Shown: one piece after another, positions 3,769 through 30,709 of the stretch
Layout: every line of letters starts with the position of its first letter
Numbering within the stretch: position 1 is the stretch's first letter
Virus record (IMG/VR): IMGVR_UViG_2690316316_000011
Location: 1 to 30,935 of that record
From: a virus
Taxonomy: Duplodnaviria; Heunggongvirae; Uroviricota; Caudoviricetes
Strand: one strand, 5' to 3'
Length of the DNA: 30,935 bases
The notes under the pieces: generated by a model
What the model was told of the DNA's origin: nothing
Databases searched by the model: none
Seen by the model: the letters and a program-made list of their open reading frames with translations, nothing else
Position numbers and translations under genes: made by a program

Positions 3769-4416
3769 TCAATAGCCAGTGAAACTTGCTAAAGCAATTT
3801 GAAATCCGCTGTTCCCCATTGCCTGGCGATATGTCTTCTGGTTTTTATTCACATACTGTAAAGAGAATGAAGTACTGCTATTCCTTTTAATCAAAATGCC
3901 AGAATAACCAACTGTACCGCCATCATCGGATATGTTGCCCGGACACTGACTAATGCATATCCACGGATCGGCAAAACTCGTTGTAAGCGTCAAGGCAGTA
4001 CCGAGATCATGAGAGGATGGCACGGTAAGAAAACCCTGAATACGTGGCATTGTACCCGCACTGGCAGCAGACCAGATCAATGTTCCAGCACTGTTATACA
4101 CATCAAGGTAGCCTGATGTAAGAGCCGTAGTATTACTGGAGAGCATGAACCGCCCTGAACCTGCCTCGAACATTGCCGAGCCGGGAAAGCAGTACTTTCC
4201 ATTCGTCTGTAGCTGAAACCAGCGTAGCCCCGTATTCGGGAAGAAATTTAGGGGCAAATACCCCAGCGTACTCCCGTTACCAAAGGCACTGTTAATGAGA
4301 TAGTAACCTGTGTCTGAGAGTGTACCCATTGCTTTAACGGAACTCATTACGACCGATTTATTATCGGAATCAATCGTAAGAGCACCTGCTGAATTGTAAA
4401 CCTGAAAACCTGACAT
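3769..4416 (-). CDS. tail-tip associated protein, unknown function
   Basis: 215-aa ORF directly downstream of the J-like gene; Gly/Ser/Thr-rich; N-terminal motif GFQVYNSAGALTIDSD resembles the N-terminus of the neighbouring 101-aa ORF. Confidence 0.35.
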   Translation of the reverse strand: MSGFQVYNSAGALTIDSDNKSVVMSSVKAMGTLSDTGYYLINSAFGNGSTLGYLPLNFFPNTGLRWFQLQTNGKYCFPGSAMFEAGSGRFMLSSNTTALTSGYLDVYNSAGTLIWSAASAGTMPRIQGFLTVPSSHDLGTALTLTTSFADPWICISQCPGNISDDGGTVGYSGILIKRNSSTSFSLQYVNKNQKTYRQAMGNSGFQIALASFTGY

Positions 4417-20818: not shown

Positions 20819-23257
<2,439 letters not shown>

Positions 23258-23395
23258 ATGTTTTGTGTACATCTAAAATGTCACAAACGATTCAAAGCAT
23301 CCGGTGCCGAAAACTCGCATTGACAATCAGGCTGACGGAGTACCTTAATTATTAGCTTCACTTAATTAACTTGATTAAAATCACTTACTTTTCAT

Positions 23396-23465: not shown

Positions 23466-24587
23466 TTGGTAAAAAATGTCTACTTCGACGAATCAGGGTT
23501 TACAGGTAATAACTTACTTTCAAAAGACCAGCCTTTTTTTAGTTATGCAGCAGTCATAACTGATGAAGAAGAAAGTAAACAATGTGTAGATTACATAATA
23601 CAAAAGTACTCGATTGCAGCCGGAGAGCTAAAAGGTAGCACTCTCGTTAATAGCAAGAGACTTCAACCAGCCGTAGATGAGATACTTAATCATTTCCGTG
23701 GTCGTATGCGTGTGGTTGTTAACGAAAAGAAATATGCCCTTTCAGGGAAATTCTTTGAATATATTTTCGAGCCAGTATTAGCTGCTAAAAGCTCAATATT
23801 TTACAACCTTAAATTTCACCTATTCATCTCTAATATAATGTATTTTTCTTTAATAGCTAAGGATGAGTATTCTGAACTATTGCATTCTCGATTTGAAGAT
23901 TTTTCACGAGGTAAAATATTGGTTAATAGTTTTATCGAACCAGTTATTGGTACTAAAAACTCTGAAATTATGATGGACATTCATGATTTCGCCAAACATA
24001 ACATTTCAATAATTGAAGAGGAATATGAAGGTCTTGAGGGAACTGGGTTTGATAAGTGGTTGTTAGATTTGACAACTACTTCTCTTTATAATCTCTTATG
24101 CGATATGAGTAGTAGGTTTGGTACATTGAGGGCTATATGTGACAGTTCAAAACCATTAATCACCCATCAGGAATCATTCAATGAGATGATAGGTAATGAT
24201 GAAATTGTGTTCGAGACCTACAATAATAAAAAAGTCCCGATCACATTCAAACTCTCTGAGCCGATAATCCTTTCTGATTCTAAAGTCACGCATGGTATTC
24301 AAATTGCTGATGTGATAGCTGCGGCCAGCATTTATGTGCTTAATAAGAAAAAATCCAAAGAAAGATATCACGCAAAATGGCTAACTCATTTCGAAGATGA
24401 GATTTTTTATTGGCAATGTTGTGTTGTTCCCACACCAGAAAACCTTGACCCTAAAAATGTCAACAGCTATTTGAATAGATATATATTGCAAGAAATTGCT
24501 GAACGAAGCAGAAAATCAATACCTGTTTTAGATGATATTGAAAAGGATATCATACGAATTTCCAGAACATTAGCAATGGTGCGTTGA
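23466..24587 (+). CDS. DUF3800-like protein (putative RNase H-like fold), unknown function
   Basis: 373-aa ORF beginning with a TTG codon 10 nt after an AAGGA Shine-Dalgarno; N-terminal VYFDESGFTG and C-terminal HGIQIADVIAAASIY match my recollection of the DUF3800 signature; divergent from the structural operon; AT-rich with one AGTACT copy. Confidence 0.5.
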   Translation: MVKNVYFDESGFTGNNLLSKDQPFFSYAAVITDEEESKQCVDYIIQKYSIAAGELKGSTLVNSKRLQPAVDEILNHFRGRMRVVVNEKKYALSGKFFEYIFEPVLAAKSSIFYNLKFHLFISNIMYFSLIAKDEYSELLHSRFEDFSRGKILVNSFIEPVIGTKNSEIMMDIHDFAKHNISIIEEEYEGLEGTGFDKWLLDLTTTSLYNLLCDMSSRFGTLRAICDSSKPLITHQESFNEMIGNDEIVFETYNNKKVPITFKLSEPIILSDSKVTHGIQIADVIAAASIYVLNKKKSKERYHAKWLTHFEDEIFYWQCCVVPTPENLDPKNVNSYLNRYILQEIAERSRKSIPVLDDIEKDIIRISRTLAMVR

Positions 24588-26096: not shown

Positions 26097-26783
26097 TTGA
26101 TTATGGACGAGAATAAAAAAGAAGTTATTGAAATAAGATCAGAAGATAAGGACTTTTTTGCAGAATTTATTGATTGTGAAGGTCCAATTATCCAAGATTC
26201 AATTGATCATAAAAAAATCACCCTTGCACTTGATAAAGCCCATGACATAAGAAAGTTTGAAATAGATCTCTATTGGAAGCGTGCTACTTATTTCTTTGCT
26301 TTTTTTACGGTTGTTACTGCTGCATTCGGTTTTACATTCTCAAATTACCGCTATACCTCTCTATCCCCCGCAATTGCTATTATCGGGATGACTTTTTCAC
26401 AGTGTTTTTATCATGTTAATATTGGCAGTAAGTACTGGCAGGAAAACTGGGAGTTCATTATTGATAAAATTGAATATTATGTGACTGGCAATCTTTACAA
26501 AGTTAGTTTCTTTGAAGATCATAATACATTAAGACCATCAGTGTCTAAAATTAACATTTATCTTAGCTGCTTTATCAAATGGGTTTGGATTTGTTCTCTA
26601 TTCCTATCTATTTTTAGCATACTCTTTCCGCATCCTATTTACTCATTGGTCTATTCATTAGTTGCATTCAAGCTGTATAAGCATACAGAACAGCACTGCA
26701 AAAAAACATTCAGTGATGAGTTAACTAATGATAAAAAAATCATTAGACGATTCCATTTCCGAAATCCAACATACAAAAAATAG
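26097..26783 (+). CDS. polytopic membrane protein, unknown function
   Basis: 228-aa ORF; soluble N-terminal ~60 aa then two pairs of hydrophobic helices (YFFAFFTVVTAAFGFTF / AIAIIGMTFSQCFY; IYLSCFIKWVWICSLFLSIFSILF / IYSLVYSLVAF) and a basic C-terminus; AT-rich, one AGTACT copy. Confidence 0.4.
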   Translation: MIMDENKKEVIEIRSEDKDFFAEFIDCEGPIIQDSIDHKKITLALDKAHDIRKFEIDLYWKRATYFFAFFTVVTAAFGFTFSNYRYTSLSPAIAIIGMTFSQCFYHVNIGSKYWQENWEFIIDKIEYYVTGNLYKVSFFEDHNTLRPSVSKINIYLSCFIKWVWICSLFLSIFSILFPHPIYSLVYSLVAFKLYKHTEQHCKKTFSDELTNDKKIIRRFHFRNPTYKK

Positions 26784-26811: not shown

Positions 26812-27297
26812 CTATGCTGTAGCTCGTTCATTCCACGCATCTGTATACTGGATATTACCGTCACAGTACTTCCATGTAATTCTTTCGTAGCGTAATTCTA
26901 CACGCTCCATATGATTACATTTTTCAACGGTCTTTGTATTGTACATTATCGGGGTTACGGCAACGACTTTGACGCCTTCAAGAAGCATATTGAAGTACTC
27001 TACTTCCTGGCCTGCATCATTAATCTTGTACCATTTAATTTCGACACTTTTAAGCGACTGGCCTGTAGCAACTGCTTTATAGAGATATGGCGTAGAGCTA
27101 TCAAATTCCTTTTCTAATACCATCGGTGCATGGATTCGAGTTCCAGTAATTTTACCAGTATTATTATCGGTAGGAATATGTAGACCATGACCGAAACCAA
27201 TAATTTCTACACTTCCCTCGCGATCCATTACATCGCATGACCCCTTAATTAATGCTCCACCATCATCTTTAAGCCATAAGTGTGCGGGGATTGCCAT
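26812..27297 (-). CDS. hcp: Hcp (type VI secretion system tube protein) homolog
   Basis: 161-aa ORF; MAIPAHLWLKDDGG N-terminus, IPTDNNTGKITGTRIHAP, PYLYKAVATGQSLKSVEIKWYKINDAGQEVEYF and RVELRYERITWKY blocks parallel enterobacterial and Vibrio Hcp sequences recalled from memory; AAGGAG Shine-Dalgarno 7 nt upstream. Confidence 0.8.
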   Translation of the reverse strand: MAIPAHLWLKDDGGALIKGSCDVMDREGSVEIIGFGHGLHIPTDNNTGKITGTRIHAPMVLEKEFDSSTPYLYKAVATGQSLKSVEIKWYKINDAGQEVEYFNMLLEGVKVVAVTPIMYNTKTVEKCNHMERVELRYERITWKYCDGNIQYTDAWNERATA

Positions 27298-27309: not shown

Positions 27310-27666
27310 TTAATCGTAAAGCCAGCGACCAGCCTTAGCTGATTCGACAAGCATTTTGAGTGTTAATGGTTGTGGTTCAATCCATTCCCATTTATTATCT
27401 TTTGATCGTAAAAAATTCAATGGAAGTATTACTTCTTCATTGGGCCAGTACTTTCCAAATGTGAAGTTTTTCCGATCAACATTGAACTTCGTAAAGTAAT
27501 CATCAAGTATCTCTATCGCATCTTCATCTGCCCAAGGATACTTTCCTGTTGATAGGCTTGTTTCCAGCGTCAATGATGGCTTCCTGAAAAATGGAAAAAC
27601 ACGCCCATTCCAATTGTCGTTATACCAATTCATGACCTGCTGCTCTATGCTATCTGAATCGTTCAT
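27310..27666 (-). CDS. small soluble Trp-rich protein, unknown (operon partner of hcp)
   Basis: 118-aa ORF 12 nt upstream of hcp and 7 nt downstream of the 148-aa ORF. Confidence 0.4.
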   Translation of the reverse strand: MNDSDSIEQQVMNWYNDNWNGRVFPFFRKPSLTLETSLSTGKYPWADEDAIEILDDYFTKFNVDRKNFTFGKYWPNEEVILPLNFLRSKDNKWEWIEPQPLTLKMLVESAKAGRWLYD

Positions 27667-27673
27667 TCAGTAC

Positions 27674-28120
27674 CTACCATAGACGATCTGAAGGATGGGC
27701 GATTGTATTGTACTTATTGACAGCTTTGAAACTGATTATAGAAACGTCTGCTGCGAGTATAACCCAACCAACAAGAGGAATAGTCCTGCCAACGAATGTA
27801 CCTAATCGCTGTGTCATAACTCGTTTGGCATTAGGTGGAAATCCAATCCAAGTGGGCATTCGTACTGGCATCATTCGCCCTCTGAATAATTTTCTGGAAT
27901 AGATTGATGCCACGGATGTTCCGGGGGTTGCCCCTGCGAGTTTACCTGCTACTGTGACACTATTCGAACCAAGATAGATCCCTGCTACTGCGGCTATGTC
28001 TGAGATACCAAAGTGATCTAATGTTTCATCAACCATGATCCAGAAGAATAGCTCCCCTGCACTCAGATTGGACGAACCGTCATAGAAGTATGTTCCGTTA
28101 AGTTCTTCTACTGTATCCAT
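27674..28120 (-). CDS. hydrophobic glycine-zipper-like protein, unknown (first gene of hcp operon)
   Basis: 148-aa ORF with Gly/Ala-rich hydrophobic stretches (ISDIAAVAGIYLGSNSVTVAGKLAGATPG; GRTIPLVGWVILAADVSIISF). Confidence 0.4.
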   Translation of the reverse strand: MDTVEELNGTYFYDGSSNLSAGELFFWIMVDETLDHFGISDIAAVAGIYLGSNSVTVAGKLAGATPGTSVASIYSRKLFRGRMMPVRMPTWIGFPPNAKRVMTQRLGTFVGRTIPLVGWVILAADVSIISFKAVNKYNTIAHPSDRLW

Positions 28121-28330: not shown

Positions 28331-29044
28331 ATGAAATTTAAAAAATATAACAATGCTTTGATTTGCACTGTTCTTGTACTCTTATGGGCAGCAATCTTGG
28401 CACTGGTTAAAGTTTTATTTTCTGGGAATAAAGATTTTGAATGGGGTAGTGTCTCTGATTGGGCATCCACATTTTGCAATGCTATAATGGCTGGAGCTGC
28501 ATTATATGCAGCTATTAATGCAAAAAATTGGTTATCAGAGAAAACACGAACATTAGGTTTGGAAAAAGCCGAATCTATACTTAATGAAATCGATACTTTT
28601 TCTTCCGCCCATAGTTCTTATATAGATCGTTTAGCTGAAGCTGAAATCTACTATCGGTCTAATATTTTTGAAAATCAAGTAGACAGGAATATAGTAATAA
28701 ATTCACTTGATGAATTACGAGTGTTAATTGAAAACAACAAACTGAGATTGCAGGATACGCATTCAAAATTTTCATCATTAAAACGTTGGGATGTCACAAT
28801 TTTAAAGGAAGAGGAAATTTATCAGCTACTTGATGTTTATCAAAGAACAATTATGTCTTTATCGAATGCGACTTTTAATCTAAGAAATGCATTATCGGAA
28901 TTCATTAATGATGAAAGGTTTTTTGCACTCTTTGGCCATCATTTCAAAGAATATTATGCAGAGGCTCTTTCGTCCTATCATCAGGGGACATGTATCCATG
29001 ATAAAATTAGGAAATATAAATTCCGAGAACTTTTTGATGTATAG
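28331..29044 (+). CDS. N-terminally membrane-anchored helical protein, unknown function
   Basis: 237-aa ORF; two N-terminal hydrophobic helices (ALICTVLVLLWAAILALVKVLF; FCNAIMAGAALYAAINA) then a charged helical domain; AT-rich with no AGTACT copies. Confidence 0.4.
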   Translation: MKFKKYNNALICTVLVLLWAAILALVKVLFSGNKDFEWGSVSDWASTFCNAIMAGAALYAAINAKNWLSEKTRTLGLEKAESILNEIDTFSSAHSSYIDRLAEAEIYYRSNIFENQVDRNIVINSLDELRVLIENNKLRLQDTHSKFSSLKRWDVTILKEEEIYQLLDVYQRTIMSLSNATFNLRNALSEFINDERFFALFGHHFKEYYAEALSSYHQGTCIHDKIRKYKFRELFDV

Positions 29045-29681
29045 TTTATCGTAGTGCATAGGAATTATGTCGATACCGCATATGGTAACAGTTTCTGATA
29101 AACTCGGGCTTCTCATCTGAGTCTTTCATTAAGCACCGTTACATTAGTTATACTGTCATAACTCACTTAAGCAATAACATCTGTTAGCCGGAGGTTGTGC
29201 GTGCGGCGGCGGGACTGGCGGGTTACTAACTAATGCCTTGATGATAGTACTGATTTAGTAGTTTACCACAGTAAGGGCTTCAACAGCCCGATAACCCCAA
29301 CAAGGGAGTTTACGACCGCGTAGGTACTCACGAAGACTTTAGGCCACAGGCCGACCCAAAAACATTTTGAGTACTTCATTTGTCAGTACTGTTACCTGTC
29401 TGAGCGAGAGCGAGTAAGGGCTTTGGCGTTCTTTCGAGTACAGCGAGAAAAACGCAAAGTTACTAACCAATACTACGAGGAGTTCACGACGAGTAGTATT
29501 CGTGACGCAAGTCACAATTTCATTGAATACTGATAGAGAAAGAAATACATGGAATGAAATGGAATGGATTTCGTATCTCTATACTTAGTTGCCGTATTGA
29601 TGGTAAAACGCAGGTTTCAGGGGCTTTTTTTCCCGTATTACGGCATGGATGTATGCCGTTATATGCCGCAATAAGGCACAA

Positions 29682-30143
29682 TTAACGCAAGCTCTTTAAG
29701 TACTCGATCATGTCATCAATAAAGTTACCTTCTTTTTGTAGTTCTAATAGCTTACCTACCTCTTTATACGTTAGCGTTCTTTGTCCATATGCTGGTGCTG
29801 GTAGTGCGTCTGGGTGCTCCATCATATACTGCTCGATTTGTTTTGCTGCATCCGTGATCGCTGCCCCGTAGTACCTGATCATACGTTCTTTTACTTGTTT
29901 CTTATTCTGACTTACTTTAATAGCATTGATAGTACTGAATAGTAAATCATTTCGTATTTCATCTTCATTGCTCAATACTGTAAACACATCGTATACACTA
30001 ATCTTATCCCTCACATTCAGTTTAGCCACTGAATCCTTCATTATGTTTTTGATATCTTCACATGGGATATCTTTATATAGCTTGCACTGACTAATTAGTG
30101 CTTTTATTTTTCTGTTATCAAAACTTGAATAAGTTTTTGCCAT
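29682..30143 (-). CDS. hypothetical protein
   Basis: 153-aa ORF; no motif recognised. Confidence 0.35.
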   Translation of the reverse strand: MAKTYSSFDNRKIKALISQCKLYKDIPCEDIKNIMKDSVAKLNVRDKISVYDVFTVLSNEDEIRNDLLFSTINAIKVSQNKKQVKERMIRYYGAAITDAAKQIEQYMMEHPDALPAPAYGQRTLTYKEVGKLLELQKEGNFIDDMIEYLKSLR

Positions 30144-30208
30144 GATAAATACTCCTAAGATAGATGTTAATTTTGGCCTGTAGTATTTCCAGTACTCAGG
30201 CCTTTTTA

Positions 30209-30709
30209 TTATTGTGATTTGTGTAATAGTACCGCACTAAGTTTCGGATAAGATTTATACTTCTGCGATAGCTTATAGATGTATGACTTACGTCCAGCAA
30301 CATAAGCTGCATGAGCTTCTTCTACCGTTTGGTATGTTCCAAATTTATGTACTTTCTTATCAAATGTAGCTTGTGCTTGATAGCCCTTATGATTAACGAC
30401 TACACCAGTTGATAAAGATGTTGGTACTTCCCGAAATAATTGATTGATTTCTCTCGGTACAAAGATACAGTTACTTGGGCTGTACTCACTCCCTCCTAAT
30501 ATGTCTTTATCCAAGTGCCAATCATCAACGACATTATCAATATACCAGTAATAAAAGTTACTAAAGAGATACCAATCATCGCAGATAGTAACAGTACTGT
30601 AATTGATGTTATTACGTACTCTTGAGTGAAAATTATTCCATACTAGTTGTGCTTCTTTTATACGTGGTAGTGCCTGACCTTTTAGGTCATTTCTTTTTTC
30701 CTTTTCCAT
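30209..30709 (-). CDS. HNH homing endonuclease with C-terminal AP2-like DNA-binding domain
   Basis: 166-aa ORF; HNH-like H..D......N....N segment (WHLDKDILGGSEYSPSNCIFVPREINQ) and AP2-like C-terminus (GVVVNHKGYQAQATFDKKVHKFGTYQTVEEAHAAYVAGRK). Confidence 0.55.
   Translation of the reverse strand: MEKEKRNDLKGQALPRIKEAQLVWNNFHSRVRNNINYSTVTICDDWYLFSNFYYWYIDNVVDDWHLDKDILGGSEYSPSNCIFVPREINQLFREVPTSLSTGVVVNHKGYQAQATFDKKVHKFGTYQTVEEAHAAYVAGRKSYIYKLSQKYKSYPKLSAVLLHKSQ

Follow-up and report, generated by a model that had tools for sequence, protein, structure and literature searches.

We analysed the IMG/VR virus record IMGVR_UViG_2690316316_000011 (Caudoviricetes; positions 1 to 30,935, all 30,935 nucleotides of which are referred to here as the window), which represents most of a ~35-kb prophage lying between a yeaG-side serine integrase and mipA. 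Near its right end, two convergent open reading frames (ORFs), 28331..29044 (+, 237 aa) and 29682..30143 (-, 153 aa), enclose a stretch without genes. An earlier note had marked 29117-29681 as an ORF-free, GC-richer and structure-rich region and had proposed that it is a structured non-coding RNA, a replication origin, a packaging site or a decayed gene. It is well supported that ~29186-29681 is a functional, conserved non-coding module. This module belongs with the 153-aa gene on its right, which is a member of a family that we refer to as p155. Several readings of its exact role compete, and the one that we prefer, tentatively, is a replication origin.

Between the flanking genes (29045-29681) there is no ORF of 60 aa or more, the longest being 58 and 53 aa, followed by one of 43 aa. 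The GC content is locally higher, with 0.48 at 29150-29449 versus 0.31-0.34 on both sides, a value that does not set the region apart from some structural genes of the window (0.44-0.47). The left boundary was corrected to ~29186, where the conserved element starts, while the right end at the stop codon (29682) was kept. The stem-loops of the earlier note are present (GGGCT-tcaac-AGCCC at 29275-29290, GGCC-aca-GGCC at 29342-29352, and CTTTGGCGTT...AACGCAAAG at 29421-29459), and the last of these stands out among the small motifs as a conserved feature. The GGAATG repeats were located at 29551-29567. The direct repeat GTTACTAAC does occur at 29222 and 29459, but it is not conserved across classes. 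Likewise, AGTACT is present three times (29247, 29370 and 29385), but what is conserved is GTACT at 29386-29390, in the second AGTACT of a hairpin.

Read from the p155 gene, the layout consists of the gene, a repeat cluster, a spacer of 40-110 bp, a distal repeat, an A+T-rich box, the hairpins and a GC-rich tract. In window coordinates, from left to right, the features are:

29102..29122 (+): terminator-like hairpin of the 237-aa gene (ACTCGGGCTTCTCATCTGAGT + CTTTCATT), just outside the conserved element at its left edge
29186..29222 (+): GC-rich tract GCCGGAGG..GGCGGCGGGACTGGCGGG, distal end of the element
29275..29290 (+): hairpin A, GGGCT-TCAAC-AGCCC, conserved in most classes
29304..29337 (+): variable mini-hairpin slot (here GG-gagtttacga-CC), then conserved block CGCGTAGGTACTCACGAAGAC
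29342..29352 (+): hairpin B, GGCC-ACA-GGCC
29370..29390 (+): hairpin AGTACT-tcatttgtc-AGTACT, with invariant columns GTACT at 29386-29390
29402..29414 (+): motif D, GAGCGAGAGCGAG, containing the GCGNNAGC-type mini-hairpin GCGAGAGC at 29404-29411
29418..29461 (+): hairpin P1, a long imperfect stem with invariant apical TTTCGAGTAC-N-GCGAGAAAAA (29432-29452)
29469-29500 (+): hairpin P2, AATACTAC-GAGGAGTTCACGACGA-GTAGTATT
29502-29515 (+): hairpin P3, GTGAC-GCAA-GTCAC
29533..29584 (+): A+T-rich hairpin ATAGAGA...TCTCTAT with the GGAATG repeats in its loop, nearly invariant in nine close relatives
29589..29673: p155-class-specific repeat array (TGCCGTAAT-like), beside the p155 stop codon
29589-29598: distal repeat TTGCCGTATT
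29632-29645: cluster repeat CCCGTATTACGGCA, palindromic
29654-29663: cluster repeat TGCCGTTATA
29664-29673: cluster repeat TGCCGCAATA
29682..30143 (-): p155 gene, 153 aa, of an unannotated Enterobacterales family; the module is always 3' of it
30144..30207: conserved region upstream of p155, with Shine-Dalgarno (SD) sequence and spacer AGGAGTATTTATC, TTAATTAACAT
30175-30202: hairpin GGCCTG..CAGGCC, with GGAA in the minus-strand loop, followed on the + strand by TTTTTATT

The module was found, with a fixed architecture, in ~60 prophage, island and metagenome loci of Enterobacterales (individual loci are referred to with L numbers). The loop pattern TTTCGAGTAC-N(1-2)-GCGAGAAAAA occurs in 17 viral, 7 genuine genome and ~30 metagenome loci. 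All of those with a named organism are Enterobacterales. An ORF of 150-175 aa on the opposite strand that ends 250-300 bp from the core is present in every locus of the set. A covariance model recovered exactly one copy per locus, in a constant orientation to p155, with E-values mostly between 1e-15 and 1e-22 (48 related loci). In 52 loci fetched via the terminase small subunit (TerS), p155 and the core were both found or both missing; the two exceptions had divergent cores. Nine viral contigs with 91-96% identical p155 share nucleotide homology with the window from the gene to ~29363, where it ends. Among these nine, 29463-29681 is almost invariant and more conserved than the neighbouring coding sequence. 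The 113-nt core (29351-29463) is present at 93% identity in 29 of the 34 matching Escherichia coli chromosomes, unannotated and in a different context. Recombination breakpoints lie at 29290, 29363 and 29432, and the segment 28376-29290 was transferred as one cassette into L087, a relative with another core type.

Searches for known elements gave little. With Rfam 15, where a match is a score at or above the gathering threshold of a family, the whole window had zero matches, as had 28900-29900 at E <= 10. ARAGORN found no tRNA or tmRNA in the window, and in blastn neither the region nor a 25-kb part of the window had a match among phages or plasmids. In the literature, the literal sequence strings of the region gave chance matches only, and keywords for the prophage type returned nothing relevant.

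The p155 family and its repeats

The p155 family (~155 aa) comprises 62 clusters, all labelled hypothetical and without a Pfam domain. Profile searches of Pfam, PHROG and PDB yielded zero annotation, and tblastn with three p155 classes against phages and two against plasmids gave no match. The AlphaFold model is all-helical with seven helices (pLDDT 81.6), for which Foldseek retrieved uncharacterised proteins of Klebsiella phage RaK2 and of some Pseudomonas phages and nothing else. No likeness to Q, N or known regulators was seen in sequence or fold. Homologues from other loci are only 10-22% identical to the window protein, yet they can be aligned as one family in which N10 and Y92 are invariant. 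The stretch that is best conserved across classes, judged by eye, is C-terminal (Y-L-T-x-E-E...D-L-I-x-Y-L).

Directly 3' of p155, every class carries four to six short repeats in both orientations, and the sequence of the repeats is predicted by the p155 class. At least six classes each have their own repeat at the equivalent place, for example TTAAGTTACGGTTAT / ATAACCGTA in L001 (also written GTTACGGTTAT), AAAATACGGTT / ATAACCGTA in L090, GTGCCCGTTTTT / AAAAACGGGCAC in L123 and TATGGGCTAAT / ATTAGCCC in L019. At least three repeated sites adjoin the putative specificity gene in the window, L001, L019, L090 and L123, as is expected of iterons. In the window, three of the seven matches to the pattern TGCCGTAATA lie inside the array, with 2.0 matches expected for the whole window. 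The type of hairpin core, the HNH gene and the gene for a 50-aa, ribbon-helix-helix (RHH)-like protein assort independently of the p155 class. Judged from these sequences, p155 probably binds the repeats of its own class. In the genome of Serratia sp. NPDC078593 the module occurs twice (L033, L036), and the two copies differ in p155 class and in repeats, which would be expected if the classes act as compatibility or immunity groups.

Most other classes have the palindrome AATATTAATATT beside the distal repeat, where the minus strand reads TATAAT or TATATT. Many of these classes share CATATAGTGTTTAAAC in the spacer between the cluster and the distal repeat, and this spacer is A+T-rich in several classes. 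The hairpin at 29533-29584 is the class-a equivalent of the A+T-rich box found there in other classes; its + strand loop contains three GGA motifs (29551-29568).

The region upstream of p155 is also conserved. Compared across 16 loci, the hairpin in this region shows compensatory stem changes, with a GGA(A) minus-strand loop in nearly all, and is followed by a T-run on the + strand; the SD spacer is likewise conserved, in all classes. The hairpin lies ~25 nt before an AGGAG SD sequence, an arrangement that resembles CsrA-repressed leaders. All classes contain TTAACA-16/17-TATYAT upstream of p155. By score, the window version (TTAACA-17-TATCAT) comes close to the promoter consensus, and its -10 overlaps the start codon.

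Structure and strand of the hairpin domain

The hairpin domain (29275-29515) is common to different p155 classes, with invariant loops and stems that co-vary. The stem of hairpin A varies to GGCT/AGCC (L002, L035, L107) and GTTC/GAAC (L094, L103), while the loop (T)NAAC is retained. Elsewhere the slot is occupied by GGGC-AAA-GCCC, GGC-GTA-GCC, GGC-AAA-GCC, GC-AAG-GC or GC-CAT-GC, and hairpin B by GGTAC-GCA-GTACC, GGCC-GCA-GGCC, GGCC-CAA-GGCC or GGCC-ATA-GGCC. In motif D, the GC..GC pairs are retained in 96% of cells around a loop of AAA, GAAA, GAGA, GATA, GTTC or GATC. L094 has an extra helix, perfectly nested, within the apical loop of P1. The P2 loop GAGGAG..ACGACGA is retained on three unrelated stems (window, L094, L107), and in other classes it is GAGC(G)AAGCGA. 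GAG(C/U)-loop-GCGA is common to D, the tip of P1 and, in several classes, the tip of P2. Tracts like GGGACTG/GCGGGGTGACTC, similar to the GC-rich tract of the window, are also present in L002, L019, L109, L119 and L123, and in several relatives a minus-strand gene with an SD sequence begins immediately past this tract.

The + strand mini-hairpins of D are GCGAAAGC, GCGAGAGC or GCGATAGC, and P2 reads GCGAAGC in three loci. Mini-hairpins of the GCGNNAGC/GCGNAGC class are part of a strand-specific array of multiple hairpins and occur on the + strand only; exceptions to the class are GCAAAGC, GCGTTCGC and GCGATCGC. Two further likenesses were rejected. TACTACGAG in P2 resembles the nick sequence of pMV158, but other loci have unrelated sequences in place of this stem, and a by-eye resemblance of CGCGTAG to an RfaH ops-like site was unsupported.

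Folding with covariation across relatives recovered conserved, co-varying stems in D and P1. In a plain MAFFT alignment of 30 sequences, 84.4% of the D and P1 cells are paired, versus 34-51% with slid partners, and covariation is 0.101 versus 0.062 in shuffles. Among 43 distinct sequences aligned with the covariance model, an alignment that is fitted to the model and so biased towards it, 85.5% are paired versus 34-53% when slid. In this alignment both sides have changed in 11 of the 19 pairs (40 cells), and covariation is 0.181 versus 0.071 shuffled (0/500 shuffles). The changes in the stems of A, B and P2 were judged by eye. Such compensatory changes are the general mark of a structured RNA, and hairpins of single-stranded DNA would give the same result. 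These hairpins, together with the repeat array that co-varies with the adjacent protein, bear out the structured or cis-acting non-coding element of the earlier note.

The segment 29270-29690 folds better than its shuffles on both strands (z = -2.95 on the + strand, -2.47 on the - strand), which reveals many inverted repeats without identifying the strand. The wobble pairs bear on the strand: the apical pair of P1 is U.G in 34 sequences, C-G in two and U-A in two, and the basal A-U pairs interchange with G.U. A.C cells are mostly artefacts of alignment register. When a ~264-nt segment of 23 representatives, which are related to one another, was compared with mononucleotide shuffles, 18 of them had the lower z-score on the + strand. 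The structure thus moderately favours the + strand.

Possible roles of the module

The layout of the module resembles that of the phage lambda ori, which combines iterons, an A+T-rich region and a palindrome, and also that of the SaPI ori and of RSF1010 oriV. By its sequence, the module may be an iteron-type replication origin in which p155 provides the specificity and the hairpins serve as priming signals on one strand; the non-coding region, acting in cis, and the p155 gene would then be two halves of one unit. We prefer this reading while holding it at less than even confidence. p155 would bind its class-specific repeats just past its own stop codon, at the distal site and at the cluster, where neighbouring sites are 10-12 bp apart. 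Binding would open or remodel the adjoining A+T-rich stretch. The + strand, once single-stranded, would fold into A, B, D, P1 and P2, forming a priming or single-strand-initiation (ssi) signal that would be read by a conserved partner, probably the host machinery. As the reader would be a conserved partner, the hairpin domain could be common to elements that differ in p155 and repeats. We infer that the region fires replication and that the hairpins work as single-stranded DNA rather than as RNA. An origin would explain the repeats, their co-variation with p155, the A+T-rich box and the strand-specific, orientation-fixed hairpin array. It would also explain why promoter and terminator signals are missing, why the elements lack replication genes and why the module is retained in minimal islands. 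Of the candidates in the earlier note, an origin would agree best with the anatomy and with the set of genes that the elements carry.

Several observations weigh against an origin. p155 matches no known initiator (Rep/O/alpha) by sequence or fold, and neither the protein nor the region is present in any of 72,556 plasmids and 50,697 phage records. DnaA boxes (TTWTNCACA, up to one mismatch) are not enriched, with one site at 29262 and none near the repeats. The hairpin core has no homology to the complementary-strand origin of phage G4 (ori_c), since the covariance model R1 had no match at G4 3900-4000 and its best score elsewhere was 7 bits. GC skew is uninformative, being confounded by gene orientation. 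The spacer between the repeats is not markedly A+T-rich in the class of the window, and the preference for the + strand depends on few independent substitutions. The anatomy also suits an operator array with a promoter about as well: -10-like boxes lie beside the distal repeat on the - strand, and co-directional genes follow in several loci.

It is almost as likely that p155 is instead a class-specific transcription factor (activator, repressor or Q-like antiterminator). The repeats would then be operators around a minus-strand promoter, and the hairpins the long 5' leader, or the 3' untranslated region of p155, of a transcript into the cargo genes. TATAAT or TATATT lies 3-6 nt past the distal repeat in most classes, and a second box, TATAGT, lies inside CATATAGTGTTTAAAC between the cluster and the distal repeat. 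However, the class of the window has no -10-like boxes, and consensus scans of either strand yielded no consistent promoter (sigma-70) or terminator in the region. The next gene is co-directional in L109, L119, L123, L125 and the islands L131-L134, starting in the first four with an SD sequence right after the GC-rich tract, whereas the window, L001 and L006 have a convergent first cargo gene. L001 has a minus-strand terminator-like hairpin after the core; 29045-29681 of the window contains no minus-strand terminator. The position parallels lambda Q, pR', leader and cargo, and immunity and antitermination modules typically split into classes of different specificity, but p155 is unlike Q, N or known regulators. 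The hairpins, moreover, favour the strand antisense to the proposed transcript, and separate promoter-like sites precede cargo and late genes, with TerS behind an insulating 12-bp terminator. That strand preference, with its wobble pairs, would suit a structured RNA on the + strand, which we consider unlikely: either a trans-acting regulatory RNA, ~250-350 nt in length, or the 5' part of a long antisense RNA that would cover the repeats and p155 and end at the hairpin and T-run at 30175-30207. This + strand hairpin and T-run are conserved although the annotated genes there are all on the minus strand. Conserved loops, co-varying stems and one inserted nested helix are typical of structured RNAs, and GAAA and GAGA loops closed by C-G suit GNRA tetraloops, but the variants GATA, GTTC and GATC are not GNRA. 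Consensus scans found no promoter upstream of the domain on the + strand, where in several loci a minus-strand gene directly begins, and there is no terminator to close the domain and no Rfam match even at the relaxed threshold. The structured RNA of the earlier note thus agrees with the structure but has neither a family match nor clear transcription signals. A more novel reading, which we also consider unlikely, is a new structured element of ~250-350 nt, RNA or single-stranded DNA, in which at least three GAG(C/U)-loop-GCGA tips would be read by the conserved C-terminal half of p155 and the class-specific DNA repeats by its variable N-terminal half. Such an undescribed two-key module, with a DNA site and a structured strand as its keys, would act on replication or expression where the cargo hotspot has its fixed border, and would be common to a new prophage family and to small defence islands, which may be parasites of that family.

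The region of TerS, 6 kb from the module, bears on both a late leader and a packaging site. A promoter-like site (GTGACA-18-CATAGT, 23284-23255, - strand) overlaps the 5' arm of a 12-bp terminator hairpin (23257-23228), which has T5 just before the TerS ATG and the SD sequence in its 3' arm. This hairpin is kept in L078, L079 and L081, with compensatory changes in L081. Transcripts from the gene's own promoter would lack the 5' arm and escape termination, whereas read-through from the cargo would stop, so that the late genes look, from the sequence, insulated from upstream transcription. In addition, the variable N-terminus of TerS is linked to 100-250 bp of upstream DNA that move along with it. 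The insulation and this linkage both argue against the module as a late leader or a packaging site, and the promoter-like site inside the terminator region weakens a late-operon leader that needs antitermination. A packaging signal (cos or pac), with the core cut by terminase and the HNH protein, islands packaged by helpers and the repeats acting like cosB, is very improbable. In HK97, the HNH gene and cos precede the terminase genes, and the order HNH, (p155), non-coding region, then TerS, TerL, portal and protease/capsid recalls this arrangement. The 93% identity of the core between phage and islands, where p155 is only 25% identical, is the pattern expected of a satellite that mimics the cos of its helper. 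However, the repeats co-vary with p155 rather than TerS, the HNH gene, an optional one, shows independent assortment, and the core-bearing islands have no packaging genes and nothing in common with the TerS-proximal region. The packaging site thus ranks as the least likely of the non-coding roles in the earlier note. A decayed gene, an unrecognised small gene or a chance gap between ORFs is hardly credible, the short ORFs of 58, 53 and 43 aa notwithstanding. Coding was excluded because close relatives differ by 1-nt indels even within the best-conserved blocks; conservation follows base pairs rather than codons, ~60 loci share the fixed architecture, and the region is more conserved than adjacent coding sequence.

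Compared with known iteron origins (lambda ori, P4 ori/crr, SaPI ori, RSF1010 oriV), the module has similar short repeats in two orientations beside or 3' of a specificity gene, followed by palindromes or hairpins and, less clearly in the class of the window, by an A+T-rich segment, and the repeats diversify along with the protein. RSF1010 also has a GC-rich tract and ssi hairpins. p155, by contrast, is a protein of just ~155 aa without relationship to the O, alpha, SaPI Rep or RepC-type initiators. The module has no DnaA boxes and is never found on plasmids, and its hairpin domain (~250 nt) far exceeds those of the known origins in length and is better conserved. The lambda module of Q, pR', qut and 6S leader likewise starts with a small class-specific protein gene, followed by binding sites, a non-coding stretch, cargo and late genes. 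It differs in that there is zero similarity to Q, that there are four to six sites rather than one QBE, that no clear promoter or terminator is present, and that the late operon here seems to be served by a separate promoter, with a terminator at TerS that insulates it.

A 2026 review (PMC13037366) reports mini-hairpin DNA of the GCGNNAGC/GCGNAGC type for the primase start of G4, for St-1 and alpha3 (as GCGTTAGC), for the vicinity of RSF1010 ssiA and for the single-stranded promoters of N4. Primase ssi signals (G4/St-1/alpha3, plasmid ssi, RSF1010 ssiA, rolling-circle sso) are, like the module, orientation-specific hairpin arrays of 100-300 nt, and they are spread like cassettes over otherwise unrelated replicons and need no promoter or terminator. 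Such mini-hairpins are a further common feature (PMC13037366). The module differs in having no sequence or structure homology to G4 ori_c and no CTG start at the equivalent position, and in residing in double-stranded tailed prophages and islands without a known single-stranded stage. As the element is not homologous to G4 ori_c, the likeness is one of resemblance and not of membership. In T4-type phages, PeSLs are conserved stem-loop cassettes that border variable gene blocks at recombination breakpoints (PMC2839356). The module is similar in that breakpoints (29290, 29363 and 29432) lie at the border of a variable block. PeSLs differ in consisting of an early promoter and one stem-loop, with many per genome, whereas the module is single-copy, ~500 bp long and tied to one protein family.

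If the module is an origin with its initiator, it would be a new type of minimal replicon for integrated Enterobacterales elements and would explain how a ~35-kb prophage without a recognisable replication gene multiplies. If it is a structured RNA, it would be an undescribed family with good covariation support.

Host prophages, islands and cargo genes

The family of prophages and islands that carry the module is uncharacterised so far. The prophage of the window has full sets of head, tail and lysis genes. Its minus-strand genes start with TerS (22641..23222) and continue with TerL, portal, a protease-capsid fusion, a 739-aa ORF that is tape-measure-sized, a 1067-aa tail-tip protein and the lysis genes. 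TerL is at most 35% identical to anything in the 50,697 phage records, and no replication gene or CI-like repressor is recognisable in the ~35 kb. In contigs with the same left-end gene, the prophage ends in a DNA methyltransferase and DUF2188, adjoining mipA, yeaE and gapA. The other end in relatives consists of a large serine recombinase, small ORFs, the 50-aa protein (without a family match; ribbon-helix-helix by eye), in some cases an HNH/AP2-like gene, and the gene for the 153-aa protein. The module was considered as attP and rejected, the integrase being at the far end of the element. A holin candidate (1337-1633) matches a gene-transfer-agent holin family just below threshold. Two genes resemble homing endonucleases, a GIY-YIG (SegE-like) gene among the lysis genes (2515-2967) and the HNH/AP2-like gene upstream of p155 (30209-30709). 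The latter is 86-88% identical to copies that accompany a different p155 class and only 38% identical to those of close p155 relatives. Because this pattern of identity runs against p155 relatedness, the HNH/AP2-like gene moves independently.

Next to the module, which forms its fixed border, lies a cargo region of ~6 kb: from ~29363 to the N-terminus of TerS (~23051-23318), the sequence is mosaic among relatives. In addition to the 237-aa gene, whose product has no family match and looks membrane-associated by its hydrophobic N-terminus, the cargo of the window comprises:

23466-24587: DUF3800
26097-26783: 8xMP membrane protein
26812-27297: Hcp
27310-27666: DUF1493
27674-28120: phrog_21993

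At the equivalent position, relatives carry Tlde1, HNH and others. Cargo related to the type VI secretion system (T6SS) is unusual for a prophage. TTTCGAGTAC-N-GCGAGAAAAA beside p155 can serve as a sequence marker for the fixed border of this hotspot, whose genes include members of the Hcp and Tlde1 families of the T6SS and one of defence type with a SMODS domain.

In E. coli and relatives, islands of ~8-10 kb lie beside ffs (L001/L040, in E. coli KSC9 between ffs and ybaA; L130-L134). They contain a tyrosine integrase, p155, the module, cargo, a small resolvase and DUF2188, and nothing else. Their cargo is, for example, a SMODS-domain gene, or a nucleoid-associated protein and a 578-aa protein, and has a promoter-like site (TTGTCA-16-GATAGT). 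The islands share no DNA with the TerS region or the left end of the prophage and have no packaging genes. The window phage and the E. coli islands have a 93% identical core and otherwise only the 25%-identical p155 in common. With p155 and the module as all that they share with the prophages, the islands may be satellites of this prophage family or autonomous mini-elements of the same system.

The viral contig L005 (IMGVR_UViG_3300045988_170691) was considered as a packaged island and rejected: its positions 1-40 are sequencing-adapter-like (AGATGTGTATAAGAGACAG), only 3.9 kb are in common with the E. coli island, and it has no terminal repeat. Its ends are thus not usable as genome termini.

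Finally, a motif GCG(T)AG(A)TTTCG..C is present 60-100 nt upstream of TerS in the window (23300-23345, - strand) and in L094, L106, L116, L121 and L124. It resembles the CGCGTAG(G/T)TAC block of the module (29317-29327), which is on the opposite strand, and a shared protein-binding site is possible.

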